From Porphyromonadaceae bacterium (lineage in GTDB: Bacteria; Bacteroidota; Bacteroidia; Bacteroidales; UBA12481): DNA of 64,000 bases. Shown here piece by piece: positions 2 through 15,310 of this stretch; position 1 is the first letter of the stretch, and every line of letters begins with the position of its first letter. Position numbers and translations under genes: made by a program. The notes under the pieces were generated by a model that was not told the DNA's origin, did not search any database, and saw nothing but the letters and a program-made list of their open reading frames with translations. Location: contig QYQM01000054.1 of the NCBI GenBank assembly GCA_007280905.1, positions 22,107 to 86,106 on the forward strand, given 5' to 3'.

Positions 2-280
2 GGCCCGGCCTATGTTTGTCCGATTACCCTGCCCGCTTATAAAGCCGCCGAAAAGGCTTTTGCAGAAACTTTCGGAAAACGCCCGGTCCCATTCCGCAGC
101 GGCGGCAGCATACCCATTATATCCACTTTCGAAAAAGTACTCGGTGTAAAATCCATCCTGATGGGCTTCGGGCTCGAATCCGACAGCATCCACTCACCCA
201 ATGAAAACTATCCCATTTGGAATTTCCTGAAAGGAATCGAAACTATCACCAGGTTTTATCATCATTATACCGCGGAGTAG
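2..280 (+). CDS. M20-family metallopeptidase (dipeptidase / ArgE-DapE-like), C-terminal 92 aa only; 5' end outside window
   Basis: Frame is open from the window edge to TAG at 278-280. Translation ...FRSGGSIPIISTFEKVLGVKSILMGFGLESDSIHSPNENY... resembles the conserved C-terminal block of M20 dipeptidases. Confidence 0.6.
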   Translation, partial: GPAYVCPITLPAYKAAEKAFAETFGKRPVPFRSGGSIPIISTFEKVLGVKSILMGFGLESDSIHSPNENYPIWNFLKGIETITRFYHHYTAE

Positions 281-9492: not shown

Positions 9493-10404
9493 ATGATAAA
9501 AATTTTGCTGACCGGAGCCAATGGCCTTGTCGGACAAACTCTTGCCGGCAAGATTCAATTGTTGCACGGATTTGAACTCCTGGCCACTTCTGCATCAGAT
9601 TGCAAGGTAAAAGGAGTGGAGCCGGTTCGTTTTTCTATAATGGATATTACCTCACCGGACCAGGTTAATACGATTTTTGACCGGTTTAAACCTGATGTGG
9701 TGATTCATTGCGCAGCCCTGACGCAGGTGGATCCCTGCGAGTTGAATCCGGATTTGTGCGATAAGGTGAACATTGAGGGAACCCGTCTGGTAGCGAAAGC
9801 AGCGGAAGAGAGCGGCGCCCGGTTTATTTATCTTTCAACAGATTTTGTGTTCGATGGATTGAATGGCCCCTACAGCGAAGATGATCAGCCAAACCCGGTA
9901 AGTGTTTATGGCTGGTCGAAACTGCAGGGTGAATTTATTACCAGATCATTGAAGGTGCCATGGATAATTGTTCGCACTATCCTCGTTTACGGGTTCACAC
10001 CGTCTATGAGCCGGTTCAACATGGTTACCTGGGTGCGTGATTCTCTCATCAATCATAAACCGATCAGGTTAGTTGACGACCAGTTCCGGATGCCAACACT
10101 GGTGGATGACCTTGCCGATGGCATCATCCGGATTATCAAAAGAGATAAAACCGGAATCTACCATCTTTCGGGGCCCGAAATGACCTCTGTTCTTGACTTT
10201 GCTGTTCAAACTGCACGGTTCTTCAATCTCGATGAATCACTGATTTCGCCTGTTCATTCGGATTCTTTGAATCAACCCGGCCGGCGTCCGGTATCAACCG
10301 GATTTATCCTTGAAAAGGCGATCGGAGAGTTAGATTATGCCCCGCGAAACCTCAATCAAGGGCTTACGGTGGCACGGAATTTGCTTTCAGATTATACTGT
10401 TTAG
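9493..10404 (+). CDS. SDR-family NAD(P)-dependent reductase, RmlD (dTDP-4-dehydrorhamnose reductase)-like
   Basis: ATG at 9493 gives MIKILLTGANGLVGQ (Rossmann GxxGxxG). YLSTDFVFDG and SVYGWSKLQGE (YxxxK) are present. The ORF-track N-terminal extension overlaps the DUF2851 gene and was trimmed. Confidence 0.7.
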   Translation: MIKILLTGANGLVGQTLAGKIQLLHGFELLATSASDCKVKGVEPVRFSIMDITSPDQVNTIFDRFKPDVVIHCAALTQVDPCELNPDLCDKVNIEGTRLVAKAAEESGARFIYLSTDFVFDGLNGPYSEDDQPNPVSVYGWSKLQGEFITRSLKVPWIIVRTILVYGFTPSMSRFNMVTWVRDSLINHKPIRLVDDQFRMPTLVDDLADGIIRIIKRDKTGIYHLSGPEMTSVLDFAVQTARFFNLDESLISPVHSDSLNQPGRRPVSTGFILEKAIGELDYAPRNLNQGLTVARNLLSDYTV

Positions 10405-10440
10405 GCATATGTCCCCCTTGTGCTTTAGATATTTTTAGCT

Positions 10441-10935
10441 ATGAAAACAAAATATCTCTGGTTGTTTTTTTCTTTCCTGTCGGTATTCGGATGTGATCGA
10501 GAAGGATCTGTCGTTCCTTCTATTAATCTGATTAGCAATTCGGAATGTAAGGGAAAGGGTTTGAAAGCAGTTGCTGACCATTCCTCCGATCAGGATTGTA
10601 TCCAATATACGTGGGTGAGCGGGGATACCCTGATAATAAAGCACATGAATGCCGGATTTAATTGTTGCCCTGACGGTTTTCGGGTAGAGCTCAAGATTGT
10701 TGGTGATACGCTGGTCATTACCGAGGTTGAGAATGCCTCCATGTGTGATTGTAATTGTCTGTTCGACCTTAACTATAATCTGACTGGGATTAGTAAAGAC
10801 ACCTGGTGGATCCGGATAGAGGAACCCTATGTGCAGCAACCTGAAGAGAAGAAAATCCTGTTCAAAACAGAATTAAGAAAGAATCCTGACGGGGAATTTT
10901 GTGTTACCCGAACGGGGTATCCCTGGAAGTTATGA
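10441..10935 (+). CDS. Small Cys-rich lipoprotein (8 conserved Cys after the lipobox), unrecognised family; paralog of 13523-14029
   Basis: Lipobox LSVFGC. Motifs shared with its paralog: GDxLxIxHxNAGFNCCP, CxCNCLF(D/N)L, EPxV, GxFCVTR. Ends 25 nt upstream of serpin 1. Confidence 0.75.
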   Translation: MKTKYLWLFFSFLSVFGCDREGSVVPSINLISNSECKGKGLKAVADHSSDQDCIQYTWVSGDTLIIKHMNAGFNCCPDGFRVELKIVGDTLVITEVENASMCDCNCLFDLNYNLTGISKDTWWIRIEEPYVQQPEEKKILFKTELRKNPDGEFCVTRTGYPWKL

Positions 10936-10960
10936 TAAACAATGCTTTGTGATTAATAAT

Positions 10961-12178
10961 ATGAAAACATTGGAGAGATTTTTAGTTGTGATGGTTATGG
11001 TTGTTATGATCGCTTCGTGTTCGAAGGATAAGGATTATGAAACCAAACCATTGAACCTTCCGCTCAAAGCAGCCGGGGTGATCACAGCAGATAATACGTT
11101 TGGGCTGGATTTATATACCAAACTTGCCGGAGCAGCTGTTTCGGGAACAAACCTGATGATTTCGCCACTGAGCGTTTCACAGGCATTATCAATGACTTAT
11201 AATGGTGCCAATGGTGATACCAAAACCGCAATGGAGGAGGCACTTCGGATTGCTGGTTATGACCGGGACGAATTGAATCAATTGAATAAGACACTTGTAA
11301 CAGCCCTGGTTGCGCATGATGCCAAGGTGATAATATCGATCGCAAATTCGATCTGGTACCGGAAGGAGTACACTGTTTTACCTGATTTCATCACCAGAAA
11401 TCAAACTTATTATGATGCTGAAATCCGGCCGATGGACTTTACCGCTTCTGATTGCAAAACCGTGATTAATAACTGGGTATCCGATAAAACCAATAAAAAG
11501 ATCACCGAGATTGTGGATCAGATCAACCCTGAATCCTTTATGTTCCTGATCAATGCCATCTATTTTAAGGGTGCCTGGACCTATGCGTTTGATAAAAAAG
11601 ATACGTATCAGCAACCTTTCTATCTGGAAGACGGGAAAGAGGTTCAGGTGGATATGATGCATCAGGAAATGGATCTGAATATGTTTGCCAATGAAACATT
11701 TACATCGGTTGAACTACCTTACGGAAAGGGCAACTGGCGGATGTTCCTTTTTCTCCCGGAGACCGGGAAAACAGTATCCGATGTGGAAAAAAACTTTACC
11801 CCTGAGAATTGGAATAGCTGGCTGAATCGTTATGACACCATCTCTGAAGTGCAGTTTTCGCTTCCTAAATTCACCTTTTCTTATGAGGAGAGCCTGAAAG
11901 ATGCCCTTTCGGCAATGGGCATGGAGATTGCCTTTACCGATAAGGCCGACTTTACAGGGATCTTGCCGGAGGGAGGATTACTGATCACCGGTGTAAAACA
12001 CAAAACATTCATTGAGGTTAATGAAGAAGGGACTGAGGCTGCAGCGGTAACTTCAGTGGAGATAGGCCTTACCTCAATCGGTAATTTCATTACCTTTAAC
12101 AAACCGTTTCTATTTGCCATCGCGGAGAAATCCACCGGGGCGATTTTGTTTATCGGGAGAATGATGAAACCGGAATAA
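10961..12178 (+). CDS. Serpin (inhibitory type), lipoprotein; serpin 1
   Basis: ATG at 10961 gives MKTLERFLVVMVMVVMIASC (lipobox). Canonical hinge NEEGTEAAAVT and C-terminal FNKPFLFAI. Counting by alignment to alpha-1-antitrypsin spacing puts P1-P1' at Thr-Ser. Confidence 0.9.
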   Translation: MKTLERFLVVMVMVVMIASCSKDKDYETKPLNLPLKAAGVITADNTFGLDLYTKLAGAAVSGTNLMISPLSVSQALSMTYNGANGDTKTAMEEALRIAGYDRDELNQLNKTLVTALVAHDAKVIISIANSIWYRKEYTVLPDFITRNQTYYDAEIRPMDFTASDCKTVINNWVSDKTNKKITEIVDQINPESFMFLINAIYFKGAWTYAFDKKDTYQQPFYLEDGKEVQVDMMHQEMDLNMFANETFTSVELPYGKGNWRMFLFLPETGKTVSDVEKNFTPENWNSWLNRYDTISEVQFSLPKFTFSYEESLKDALSAMGMEIAFTDKADFTGILPEGGLLITGVKHKTFIEVNEEGTEAAAVTSVEIGLTSIGNFITFNKPFLFAIAEKSTGAILFIGRMMKPE

Positions 12179-12187
12179 ACGGGAGGA

Positions 12188-12238
12188 CGTTAAGGGCGTA
12201 AAGGATGTAAAGAAAGAAAAGAATGAAAAGAACGTGAG
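12188..12238 (+). repeat. Degenerate purine-rich period-8/9 word array (NGTAAAGG-like)
   Basis: cgttaaggg cgtaaagg atgtaaag aaagaaaag aatgaaaag aacgtgag, immediately after the serpin 1 stop. Confidence 0.5.
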
Positions 12239-12244
12239 ATTGTA

Positions 12245-12266
12245 GAGACGGATAATTATCCGTCTC
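12245..12266. promoter_or_regulatory. Perfect 22-bp palindrome between the two serpin genes (operator or processing hairpin candidate)
   Basis: gagacggataa|ttatccgtctc is a perfect palindrome. A third half-site, atccgtct, lies at 12271-12278. No T-run follows, so it is not a canonical terminator. Confidence 0.5.
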
Positions 12267-12305
12267 ATGATCATCCGTCTTAAGAAATTGAATAGGGGAA
12301 TTATT

Positions 12306-13520
12306 ATGAAAAGGATTAGTAAACTGATAGTTGTGGTATTGATAGTGGGATTTTGGTTCGCCTGTGATAAGGAGCCGGATCAGCCGCAACCACTGAACCT
12401 GACCCGAAATGAGCTTAAGGTTCTGCAGCAGGGCAACCAGTTTGGATTTGATCTTTTTAACCTGATGGGGAAAGAAAGCCCTGATTCAAATCTTTGCATA
12501 TCACCATACAGCATTTATACCGCATTGTCCATGGCTGCAAATGGAGCGGATAACCAAACGCTGGATGAAATGCTCAATCTTCTGGGCTTCCCGGGAAAGG
12601 ATGTGGCCGATCTGAATAAATCAGTCAAAAACCTGAACCAGGTTCTGATCGGGAAAGATCCGACTACGGTTTTCGAAACCGCCAACTCGGTTTGGTACAA
12701 TACAAACGGATTTACCGTATACCCTGATTTTACAGCCAACCTTCAGAATTATTATTCTGCAAGAGTTGAAGGGCTCGATTTTTCTGCACCTTCGGCTTTG
12801 GCCACGGTAAATGGATGGGTTAAAGAAAAGACACATGATAAAATTGATAAGATCATCGAAAAGATTAACCCCGAAGATGTATGTTTCCTGATCAATGCCC
12901 TCTATTTCAATGGAAAATGGACAAACCGGTTTGATAAGGACGATACTCACCTGGATTCTTTTACCAGTGCGTCGGGGAAAAGCCAGCAGGTACCAACAAT
13001 GTACCTGAAAGATACTTTAAACGCTATAATTACAGCAGATTTGCTAGCTGTTGAGCTGCCTTACGGGGATGGCAGCTGGTCGATGTACCTCTTTCTTCCT
13101 CCGAAGAATGTAAATCTGGATGATTGGTGCAGTCAGCAACTTTCGGGAGGTTGGGAAGATCTTCGGTCACAATTCGAGCCTGTGGAGGGAATGGAAGTTT
13201 ATCTGCCCCAGTTTAAGCTCGAAAATTCATTTGAACTCAGCAAGCAATTAAAGCAACTTGGTATTCCGACTGCCTTTACCGATGCCGCTGATTTTTCGAA
13301 GCTGGGTCCCGGATCCCTCTCCATCAGCCAGGTTTTGCATAAAACCTATATCGATGTTAATGAGGATGGAACCGAAGCTGCCGCTGTAACGGCTGTGATC
13401 ATTACCAGAACCTCAATGCCTGTTGATGTGATCCGGTTTAATCATCCCTTTATCTTTGTAATTGCTGAAAAATCAACGGGTTCCATAATTTTCATCGGAA
13501 AATTGATGAATCCGGAATAG
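12306..13520 (+). CDS. Serpin (inhibitory type), lipoprotein; serpin 2
   Basis: ATG at 12306 gives MKRISKLIVVVLIVGFWFAC (lipobox). Hinge NEDGTEAAAVT. RCL VIITRTSMPVDV differs from serpin 1. C-terminal FNHPFIFVI. Confidence 0.9.
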   Translation: MKRISKLIVVVLIVGFWFACDKEPDQPQPLNLTRNELKVLQQGNQFGFDLFNLMGKESPDSNLCISPYSIYTALSMAANGADNQTLDEMLNLLGFPGKDVADLNKSVKNLNQVLIGKDPTTVFETANSVWYNTNGFTVYPDFTANLQNYYSARVEGLDFSAPSALATVNGWVKEKTHDKIDKIIEKINPEDVCFLINALYFNGKWTNRFDKDDTHLDSFTSASGKSQQVPTMYLKDTLNAIITADLLAVELPYGDGSWSMYLFLPPKNVNLDDWCSQQLSGGWEDLRSQFEPVEGMEVYLPQFKLENSFELSKQLKQLGIPTAFTDAADFSKLGPGSLSISQVLHKTYIDVNEDGTEAAAVTAVIITRTSMPVDVIRFNHPFIFVIAEKSTGSIIFIGKLMNPE

Positions 13521-13522
13521 CC

Positions 13523-14029
13523 ATGAAAACAAGAACCTTTCTTTTATTGCCATTTTTAACCCTGGTGACCAGCTTTTGGCTTTCCTGCGCAAGGCAGGAT
13601 CATAACGGAGCAGCACTATCGGTTACGAATTCCTCAGATATGATGTGCAGGGCCAATGACCCGCTGAAAAGCAACGATCCTGCTCCGGAATCTTCCTGTA
13701 TCAATTTCAGTTACGATGGAGACAGTTTGCTCACCATGATGCATTATAACGCGGGTTTCAATTGCTGTCCTGAGCGTTTTACCGTGGATATTGAAGTCAA
13801 AGGCGACAGTCTGATCATCAGGGAAGCTGAACTCAAACAAGGTTGTAAGTGTAATTGTCTATTTAACCTTGAGATCAAGGTTCACAACCTTCCGGCCGAT
13901 ACCTATCATGTCAGGTTTGTTGAACCCTGTGTCAACCATTCGATACCTCGACTTATCTTTGACCTGGATCTGAAGAAGGAGCCGGTGGGGCAATTTTGCG
14001 TAACCAGGCCTGAAGGATGGTGGAACTAG
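13523..14029 (+). CDS. Small Cys-rich lipoprotein, paralog of 10441-10935
   Basis: Lipobox FWLSC. Shares the NAGFNCCP / CKCNCLFNL / FCVTR scaffold. Starts 2 nt after the serpin 2 stop. Confidence 0.75.
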   Translation: MKTRTFLLLPFLTLVTSFWLSCARQDHNGAALSVTNSSDMMCRANDPLKSNDPAPESSCINFSYDGDSLLTMMHYNAGFNCCPERFTVDIEVKGDSLIIREAELKQGCKCNCLFNLEIKVHNLPADTYHVRFVEPCVNHSIPRLIFDLDLKKEPVGQFCVTRPEGWWN

Positions 14030-14092
14030 CAAATACCAAAAAACAAAAAACAAATCCCAAATAAGCTCCAAACTCCAAAACTCAAAATCGAA
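14030..14092 (+). repeat. C/A-only period-7 word arrays (CAAAWNN x5, then CTCCAAA-like x3-4)
   Basis: caaatac caaaaaa caaaaaa caaatcc caaataa gctccaa actccaa aactcaa aatcgaa, starting directly after the stop at 14027-14029. Confidence 0.75.
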
Positions 14093-14107
14093 GCGTTGTC
14101 ACCCCGG

Positions 14108-14128
14108 TGATAACTGATAACTGACAAC
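14108..14128 (+). repeat. Tandem heptamer array, YGATAAC family (3 units), abutting a start codon
   Basis: tgataac tgataac tgacaac, then aa, then ATG at 14131. Confidence 0.8.
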
Positions 14129-14130
14129 AA

Positions 14131-14814
14131 ATGGAAAATAAAAACTTTCTTATAGGTGCGATAATTCTGGTGGCCGTTGGGCTTTTTGTTTCCTGTCATG
14201 AAGACCCCAATGAATTTTGCGAGTACGGGTTTAAAAAAGCTACAGTGGTTTATAGTGGTGCGCCGGAGGTTGACGGATGCGGATGGAAGATTTTAATCGA
14301 TTCTGTCTACTATCATCCGGTTAATCTCAGTATTGATTATCAAATTAGTGATCTGCCGATCCTGATAAAATACACGGCTGATCCTGAAGAATTCCGGTGT
14401 GGCCGGGGAGGGGCTACTTATCAGTCGATACGGATTACAGAAATTAAGAAGAATCCTGAAGAGGTTGGTATTCTTCATGAAAATGAATGGGAAAAGTATT
14501 CGATGGACCCGTTCCACCTCGATTCAGCCTATGTGGATGACGATTTGCTCATGATGCAGGTCAGCTATAGCGGCGGCTGCAGGAACCATGAATTAAATCT
14601 GTGGAAGCTTCCTCCGAATGCTTTGAATCCGCCACCCATTGAATTAGCGCTATCTCATGATGCCAATGGGGATATGTGCGAAGCTTATATCACCCGCTGG
14701 CTAATTTTCTCTCTGGTTCCACTTCGGGAAAGAGGAAAGAAGGAGATTAAGTTTCTTCTGCGAGGGTCACCGGAGATGTCGGCGTATTTCGGGACATACA
14801 TTTATAAATACTAA
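14131..14814 (+). CDS. Two-domain Cys-containing lipoprotein, function unknown
   Basis: Lipobox GLFVSC. The N-terminal half has the VDGCGWKILID motif. The C-terminal half has VSYSGGCRNHELNLW...SHDANGDMCEAY. It is the last gene of the serpin island. Confidence 0.65.
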   Translation: MENKNFLIGAIILVAVGLFVSCHEDPNEFCEYGFKKATVVYSGAPEVDGCGWKILIDSVYYHPVNLSIDYQISDLPILIKYTADPEEFRCGRGGATYQSIRITEIKKNPEEVGILHENEWEKYSMDPFHLDSAYVDDDLLMMQVSYSGGCRNHELNLWKLPPNALNPPPIELALSHDANGDMCEAYITRWLIFSLVPLRERGKKEIKFLLRGSPEMSAYFGTYIYKY

Positions 14815-14851
14815 GACTTTAAGACTGTAAGACTGTAAGACTGTAAGACTG
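14812..14851 (+). repeat. Tandem octamer array TAAGACTK x5, starting on the stop codon of the upstream gene
   Basis: taagactt taagactg taagactg taagactg taagactg. The first TAA is the stop of the 14131-14814 gene. Confidence 0.9.
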
Positions 14852-14886
14852 TGAGAGGATAGCTTCGGAGAAAATCTCATAGTCTT
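14845..14886 (+). terminator. Hairpin formed by the last octamer unit and an inverted partner word (terminator candidate)
   Basis: aagactgtgaga (14845-14856) pairs with tctcatagtctt (14875-14886): 12 bp including one G-U. The 18-nt loop contains cttcgg. The hairpin is followed by ttgg. More AGTCTW words lie at 14897-14902 and 14905-14910. Confidence 0.4.
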
Positions 14887-14933
14887 TTGGTTCTAAAGTC
14901 TAATAGTCTTTCCTCAACGTCCTCACGAGTTTT

Positions 14934-14964
14934 TTTGGTTTACTGAATCTTTTTCGTATTTTTG
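14934..14964 (+). promoter_or_regulatory. Bacteroidota-type promoter candidate for rpsO
   Basis: TTTG at 14934-14937, 19 nt spacer, TATTTTTG (TAnnTTTG) at 14957-14964; 38 nt before the ATG. Confidence 0.5.
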
Positions 14965-15002
14965 CGCGTCAATTTAAAGAAAACTGTAAAATTTTAGTAA
15001 AC

Positions 15003-15272
15003 ATGTACTTAACGGCAGAAAAGAAACAAGAATTTTTCGAGAAGTACGGGAAGTCCAATACAGACACCGGTTCATCAGAGGGACAGGTTGCCTTATTCTC
15101 ATACCGTATTGCTCATTTGACGGGACATTTGAAGAAAAACCGCAAGGACTTCAGCACCCAGCGATCGTTGATCAGATTAGTAGGTAAACGCAGAAGGCTG
15201 CTCAACTACCTCAAGGACCGGGACATAGCGCGTTACCGGACGATTATTAAAGAATTGAATTTACGTAAATAA
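15003..15272 (+). CDS. rpsO: 30S ribosomal protein S15
   Basis: 89 aa: MYLTAEKKQEFFEKYGKSNTDTGSSEGQVALFSYRIAHLTGHLKKNRKDFSTQRSL... Confidence 0.95.
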   Translation: MYLTAEKKQEFFEKYGKSNTDTGSSEGQVALFSYRIAHLTGHLKKNRKDFSTQRSLIRLVGKRRRLLNYLKDRDIARYRTIIKELNLRK

Positions 15273-15284
15273 CCCAAGAAAAAA

Positions 15285-15310
15285 AAGGCAATTTCATAAT
15301 TGCCTTTTTT
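15285..15310 (+). terminator. Rho-independent terminator/attenuator between rpsO and pnp
   Basis: aaggcaatt-tcat-aattgcctt (9-bp perfect stem) followed by a T-run. Confidence 0.8.

Follow-up and report, generated by a model that had tools for sequence, protein, structure and literature searches.

Organization of the locus

In the window (the whole stretch of 64,000 nucleotides analyzed here), two serpin genes are flanked by genes for two small Cys-rich lipoproteins, CysA upstream and CysB downstream. On the same strand, a gene for an RmlD-like reductase lies upstream of CysA, the cassette closes with a gene for a NigD-like lipoprotein, and rpsO and pnp follow (Table 1). All five products from CysA through the NigD-like protein have a lipobox with acidic residues after it.

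The start of serpin 1 was read off the translation as an internal ATG of the ORF that opens at 10901; here, the lipobox ..IASC is followed by SKDKD, and the hinge, EEGTEAAAVT, is of the inhibitory type. For serpin 2, the ORF extends from 12267, with MKRISKL at 12306 as the likely start; the lipobox ..FWFAC is followed by DKEPD, and the hinge is again of the inhibitory type. In the hinge and reactive-loop regions of the two serpins (window positions 12023-12094 and 13362-13433), the hinges share GTEAAAVT and the loops differ, with ..VEIGLTSIGNF.. in serpin 1 versus ..VIITRTSMPVDV.. in serpin 2, so that the protease targets of the two serpins probably differ as well. A third, partial serpin match, a 136-aa open frame covering profile positions 246-370, lies in the same genome outside the window (G000:C107:5479-5844); this may represent a fragment, or else a gene truncated by a contig end.

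The NigD-like gene matches NCBIfam NigD1/NigD2 with E 4.9e-11 and Pfam NigD_C with E 0.0018, both below the cut-off. The gap between it and CysB (14030-14130) consists nearly entirely of A/C-rich short repeats, with caaa.. and ctccaaa units, followed by gataac/tgataac repeats right before the ATG of the NigD-like gene.

Table 1. Coordinates of the cassette genes and of related features in other genomes
Feature	Position	Strand	Description
RmlD-like reductase gene	ends 10404	+	upstream of CysA
CysA	10441-10935	+	ORF; 164-aa lipoprotein, paralog of CysB
CysA signal peptide and lipobox Cys18	10441-10494	+	followed by acidic stretch C-D-R-E
CysA 8-Cys domain, predicted all-beta	residues ~27-164		single copy
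Serpin 1	10961-12178	+	405-aa lipoprotein; Pfam Serpin 9.9e-114
Serpin 2	12306-13520	+	lipoprotein; Pfam Serpin 1.5e-103
CysB	13523-14029	+	ORF; 168-aa lipoprotein, paralog of CysA; begins 2 nt past the serpin 2 stop
NigD-like lipoprotein	14131-14814	+	227 aa; closing gene of the cassette
rpsO and pnp	past the NigD-like gene	same strand	
Locus without the Cys genes	L095, G013:C68:31500-38274		syntenic to window 10400-15300
CysB-NigD fusion ORF	L036, 2343-3200		285 aa; downstream Cys gene plus C-terminal half of NigD-like gene; Porphyromonadaceae-labelled MAG
NigD_N-like plus 8-Cys architecture	L008, 6001-6699; L092, 7001-7711; L093, 639-1337; L064, 2533-3240		232-237 aa
Second Cys-rich domain	P0093, 467-573; P0107, 334-439; P0155, 328-433; P0114; P0120; P0132; L086:111-869		

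Paralogy, export signals, and conserved residues

CysA and CysB share 51 of 145 residues (35%, BLASTP E 2e-32), far beyond chance, which confirms the description of the two ORFs in an earlier note on this DNA as paralogs about one-third identical. Both have a hydrophobic signal peptide ending in the lipobox Cys (..LSVFGC18 in CysA, ..SFWLSC22 in CysB), and this Cys is invariant in the 47-sequence family alignment. The export and lipidation proposed for the pair extend to the family, since a hydrophobic stretch followed by Cys is present in 333 of 350 full-length members.

The family-wide consensus from the lipidated Cys onward is C-[ED]-[KR]-[ED], acidic at positions +2 to +4. The lipoprotein export signal of Bacteroidota is K-(D/E)2 or Q-A-(D/E)2 just after Cys+1 (PMC5080379); the consensus is acidic and resembles K-(D/E)2 but is not identical to it. 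Given the acidic stretches after the Cys in all five products of the cassette, these probably face outward on the outer membrane, and judging from the export-signal-like residues, surface exposure of CysA and CysB is probable. That the two are Sec/SPII-exported lipoproteins, each with one undescribed all-beta domain of ~135 aa, is well supported.

Conservation was calculated over 420 non-identical copies of the domain, found in other organisms and aligned with the family HMM. The eight further Cys of CysA, at positions 36, 53, 75, 76, 102, 104, 106, and 154, are all aligned in CysB, and each is conserved in at least 93% of the copies; the eight Cys that had been seen in the two proteins are hence conserved across the family. 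The same holds for the scaffold motifs of the earlier note, including CC and CxCxC, which are kept far beyond this genome in the family consensus HxNAGFNCCP, GDTLxIxExE, CDCxCLFDL, EPY, and FCVxRxxYPW. Other conserved positions are N74 (99%), N70 (98%), H68 and E95 (97% each), R157 (96%), and D109 (94%); Y130, Y160, and W162 are also conserved across clades. The segment between C36 and C53 opens with semi-conserved C-K-x-hydrophobic-K-S, where K37 is conserved in 85% of the copies, and afterwards varies in sequence and length. CysB has an extra Cys at residue 136 (EPC); an intermolecular disulfide through this residue was considered and dropped, as the residue is not conserved within the B lineage.

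Pairing of the cysteines

Cys residues are lost from the 420 copies in specific pairs. C53 and C154 are lost together in 19 copies, with many different replacements (Fisher 5e-24), C76 and C102 in eight copies (Fisher 5e-16), and C75 and C104 in one; the Fisher p-values are inflated because the sequences are related, while the variety of replacement residues indicates that pairs of Cys were lost repeatedly and independently. Based on this, C53-C154 and C76-C102 can be inferred firmly as disulfides; C75-C104 and C36-C106, the latter assigned by elimination, are probable. The vicinal pair C75-C76 would bond to the CxCxC strand.

The Cys residues, together with His and Glu, might instead form a metal or redox centre, as in a metallochaperone, a thiol-redox protein, or a small enzyme: CC and CxCxC lie beside the invariant H68, E95, and E97, and the hosts are anaerobes, in which extracellular disulfides are less expected. 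However, the loss of one pair with the other six Cys retained is the pattern of four separate disulfides, as the earlier note had suggested, rather than of a shared metal cluster; moreover, the signal is of the Sec lipoprotein type with no twin-arginine motif, and up to four full tandem copies per protein are unusual for enzymes. We consider such a centre highly improbable. Mean-field DCA on the 420 copies proved too noisy for strand topology and was left unused.

Sequence and fold searches

No Pfam-A family matches either protein (the best hit of CysA, ERMP1_C, has E 0.11 and 12 bits against a cut-off of 27, and CysB has none), and NCBIfam yields no match for either. Searches of PDB with phmmer (CysA and CysB) and with hmmsearch (the 47-sequence profile) return zero matches at E<=10. 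In Pfam searches with the multi-domain relatives, only dockerin or short sub-threshold beta-strand pieces are found, and a literature search with the family motif strings found no paper.

The AF2 model of full-length CysA (47 sequences) has pLDDT 86.7, pTM 0.77, and nine strands; the model of the mature part of CysB (103 sequences) has pLDDT 89.1, pTM 0.84, and the same nine strands in the same order. In both models, loop 37-52 has low pLDDT and is poorly modelled. The best Foldseek match in PDB has E 0.15 with the CysA model and E 0.44 with the CysB model, with TM<=0.33 and none past E 0.001; the matches, e.g., GFP barrels at TM 0.1-0.3, are noise. Against BFVD, searched with one model, the best E is 0.36. 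Both the family, described from the start as unrecognised, and its predicted fold are outside everything searched (Pfam, NCBIfam, PDB, and BFVD). Foldseek can miss similarity between all-beta structures, so the predicted fold is likely, though not proven, to be new. It is predicted with confidence and has no match in PDB or BFVD. Solving the structure by experiment could reveal a new disulfide-rich beta architecture.

Size, architecture, and distribution of the family

A word-based search retrieves 88 clusters, all of them named "hypothetical protein" or unnamed. The exhaustive profile search over 1.84 billion representatives yields 2,488 proteins at E<=1e-3, and 533 of them reach E<=1e-30; the domain is present in at least 2,488 clusters at 50% identity. 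Naming the family would annotate thousands of "hypothetical proteins" of anaerobic sediment, groundwater, and digester bacteria, and of some probable archaea.

Many of the matches contain two to four full tandem copies of the domain, and some members have an N-terminal dockerin (Dockerin_1 9e-14 in P0089, 1e-6 in P0106). Three tandem paralogous genes, with products of ~172 aa each and unrelated neighbours, are seen at L005 (4837-6519), L032 (4819-6447), and L057 (4856-6495); outside the serpin lineage, such triplets are often found.

Among GTDB species representatives, 331 stretches encode a relative, and 80 loci were kept. All 80 are from uncultured MAGs, mostly of Bacteroidales, with Ignavibacteria, Kapaibacteria, Aminicenantes, Zixibacteria, and a small number of bins under other labels. 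The family has a patchy distribution: within the taxonomic family to which the window belongs, 27 of 28 further genomes have it, as do 6 of the 32 other families of the order; in a sample of 300 genomes drawn evenly from the phylum, 1 has it. CysA and CysB are the sole two copies in their own genome.

The serpin cassette and its natural deletion

The complete arrangement, with one or two serpin genes between two Cys genes, is found at 16 loci (among L001-L089), and in 15 of them a NigD-like sequence is present downstream, as a separate gene in 14 and as a fusion with CysB in one (L036). Across the cassette loci, identity to CysA ranges from 88% down to ~35%. In the maximum-likelihood tree, every downstream (B) copy belongs to one clade (100/100), while the upstream (A) copies, including CysA of the window, fall into two neighbouring subclades (98/98 and 93/89) that could be a single group; the family members not associated with serpins make up a clade of their own (98/90). 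The branching order within A mirrors that within B. This, together with the single B clade and the A subclades, indicates that the two paralogs are old, co-diverging, and fixed in their positions. The family is genetically fixed around serpins in one Bacteroidales lineage.

A congener, G013, has the RmlD-like gene, serpin 1, serpin 2, the NigD-like gene, and pnp on one contig, with CysA and CysB cleanly absent and intergenic gaps of 71 and 122 nt in their places. The locus amounts to a natural double knock-out of the two genes. Two separate deletions point to a mutual dependence of A and B, and the two probably act together; as G013 keeps the serpins and the NigD-like gene, neither of these needs CysA or CysB. 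To our knowledge, little is known about the role of serpins in free-living (not host-associated) bacteria, and the stable cassette of five lipoprotein genes with its natural loss in G013 makes the organization of serpins on the surface directly testable.

Serpins themselves are common in the order without this family, being found in 15 of its 32 other families. Outside the home family, serpins are present in five of six Cys-positive versus 10 of 26 Cys-negative genomes, a weak trend; in none of the five genomes positive for both are a Cys gene and a serpin gene on the same contig.

Fusions with NigD-like domains

Both halves of the NigD-like protein occur fused to the Cys domain in other organisms. 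A C-terminal NigD_C-like part follows the Cys domain in the CysB-NigD fusion of L036, in P0135 (Pfam NigD_C 1e-6), and in P0175; a NigD_N-like part precedes it in nine cluster representatives of 232-237 aa (P0062, P0067, and P0081 among them) and in the 235-aa product of L064. This latter locus is labelled Thermoplasmatales, and the contig of L093, with the same architecture, carries a TFIIS-type zinc ribbon; some of these contigs look archaeal. Peptidases are nearby in two of the four contexts of this architecture (L008 and L092). For NigD-like lipoproteins, the repeated fusions offer a first functional link. By eye, SHxANGDxCEA of the NigD-like proteins is similar to KHxNAGFNCCP of the Cys family; homology was ruled out by hhalign, which aligned the signal peptide alone, with probability 28%.

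The independent fusions in both orders, the NigD-like sequence directly downstream in 15 of the 16 cassettes, and NigD-like genes after Cys genes also at L050 and L075 would fit a Cys domain that serves as a structural partner for NigD-like lipoproteins in the biology of the outer membrane or of vesicles, with the serpins as cargo or mere neighbours. In agreement with such a role, induced hypervesiculation in B. thetaiotaomicron depends on NigD1 (bioRxiv 10.1101/2023.07.13.548920). On the other hand, the NigD-like gene is retained without CysA and CysB in G013, most family members have no NigD-like neighbour, the NigD-like family is itself uncharacterised, and the two families share no homology past the signal peptide. 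This explanation seems to us unlikely.

Contexts without the cassette

Most family members have neither a serpin nor a protease as a neighbour. At the 67 non-serpin loci, we examined the immediate neighbours and scanned the 58 same-strand ones against Pfam: no neighbour family recurs above three occurrences, and one of the 58 is a peptidase. A universal genomic partner is ruled out by this tally. Similarly, seed searches for C25, C1, S8, and M28 across all loci reveal no recurrent peptidase.

Individual loci are different. At L075, two serpins flank a gene of the non-serpin clade, which is upstream of a NigD-like gene. In the distant branch, the family gene is found among three Peptidase_C25 genes at L008, and at L092 it has a Peptidase_C1 gene two small genes upstream and a Peptidase_S8 gene directly downstream; at L007, it is adjoined by genes for a beta-lactamase-fold protein and an M28 peptidase. 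These four loci hint independently at a link to proteases.

The solitary genes, which make up most of the family, could also mean that the Cys domain is a general ligand-binding or adhesion module, similar in role to carbohydrate-binding modules and specific for a glycan, a metal ion, or another conserved small ligand, the linkage to serpins reflecting a co-location of genes for surface lipoproteins within one lineage. Tandem arrays and fusions to dockerin, as seen here, are a typical trait of binding modules; the same-strand neighbours include alpha-amylase/CBM48, fucosidase, GH97, PA14, and T9SS-tailed proteins; and the most conserved polar and aromatic residues (H68, N70, N74, E95, D109, R157, Y130, Y160, and W162) are the same in all clades, which for the polar ones is easier to reconcile with a shared ligand or a structural network than with a diversity of protease targets. 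Still, the domain resembles no known carbohydrate-binding module or lectin in sequence or fold, glycoside hydrolases are few among the neighbours and of varied kinds, and two paralogous lineages held around serpins and lost together are left unexplained. We regard a general ligand module as possible, if doubtful.

Comparison with known systems

The nearest known concept is the potempins. PotA-E of Tannerella forsythia are small all-beta outer-membrane lipoproteins that bind proteases and protect the cell surface (PMC9890683). They have 98-132 aa and fold as OB-folds or eight-stranded up-and-down barrels; their genes are in operons concerned with extracellular proteolysis, directly upstream of the target peptidase (PMC9890683). 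CysA and CysB are likewise small lipoproteins, predicted to be all-beta and probably in the outer membrane, of a Bacteroidales organism. However, they are predicted to have nine strands and four disulfides and flank serpins rather than peptidases, their neighbours in the window being serpins, the RmlD-like protein, and the NigD-like protein. Further, neither sequence nor Foldseek searches reveal likeness to a chain in PDB, where the deposited potempin structures should be included, and no potempin entry is among the 50 best Foldseek matches listed for either model. Thus, the family fails the comparison on both gene position and fold.

The second comparison is with miropin, a surface lipoprotein serpin of T. 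forsythia, by which Bacteroidales are seen to display inhibitory serpins on the surface. Serpins 1 and 2 are of this kind, and miropin is hence an analogue of the neighbours, not of the Cys proteins; we know of no 8-Cys partner reported for it.

Kunitz, Kazal, Bowman-Birk, SSI, and ecotin inhibitors are compact extracellular proteins with several disulfides, often in multi-headed tandem arrays. In such inhibitors, an exposed loop is tied to the core by Cys beside a basic residue, for which C36-K37 is the candidate here; on the other hand, the Cys domain has two to three times their size, its loop is modelled poorly, and K37 is a conserved rather than a variable residue. CysA and CysB have no Pfam or PDB similarity to these families. 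NigD-like proteins (Pfam NigD_N/NigD_C; NCBIfam NigD1/NigD2), finally, are lipoproteins of Bacteroidota linked to, and repeatedly fused with, the Cys domain; they are not its homologs, and the relation is one of fusion and neighbourhood.

Possible function

Our main reading, given a probability of roughly 0.35, is that the Cys domain is a surface-exposed, disulfide-braced protein-binding or protease-inhibitor module acting beside serpins. The idea of an inhibitor, decoy, or adaptor, raised in the earlier note, is plausible as a hypothesis. The domain would be a protease-resistant protein-binding module, and CysA and CysB would act as a pair, forming with the surface serpins and the NigD-like lipoprotein an outer-membrane anti-protease shield. 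In it, the Cys domains might inhibit or trap proteases that the serpins miss, or capture proteases on behalf of the serpins. The part proposed to make contact is the loop C36-K37-x-hydrophobic-K-S...C53, which would be disulfide-tied to the core at both ends.

A role in protease control is suggested by the cassette conserved in one lineage (16 loci), the old A and B lineages, and their joint loss in G013, and also by L075, with its family gene between serpins, and by the distant branch beside C25, C1, and S8 peptidases. Arguing against it are the 67 non-serpin loci with no recurrent neighbour family and a single peptidase among the 58 same-strand neighbours; serpins being common without the family, with G013 keeping both serpins without CysA and CysB; and the recurrent fusions, which join domains that are NigD-like and not protease-related.

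An inhibitor, more specifically, would be consistent with the small size, the disulfides, the up to four full tandem copies, and the dockerin-tethered forms, with the potempins as the precedent for small outer-membrane lipoprotein inhibitors (PMC9890683). It is disfavoured by the 85% conservation of K37, which is not hypervariable as reactive sites often are, and by the lack of fold similarity to any solved inhibitor. Were the domain an inhibitor, it would offer a new, very stable scaffold. In the boldest form, the family would found a structural class of its own, made up of protease inhibitors or traps that are braced by disulfides, often multi-headed or tethered by dockerins, and of a fold absent from PDB, and CysA and CysB, together with the serpins and the NigD-like protein, would make up a multi-class outer-membrane shield; this we offer as a speculative possibility.

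A second Cys-rich domain in the relatives

Seven proteins have, after one to three 8-Cys domains, a second, unnamed Cys-rich domain of ~105 aa with no Pfam match (Table 1). Its motif is ..IGTPxCxGxGDCRYIAxGAKPCGGPWEYLIYS..SDC..P.P..GC..G.C.DL.
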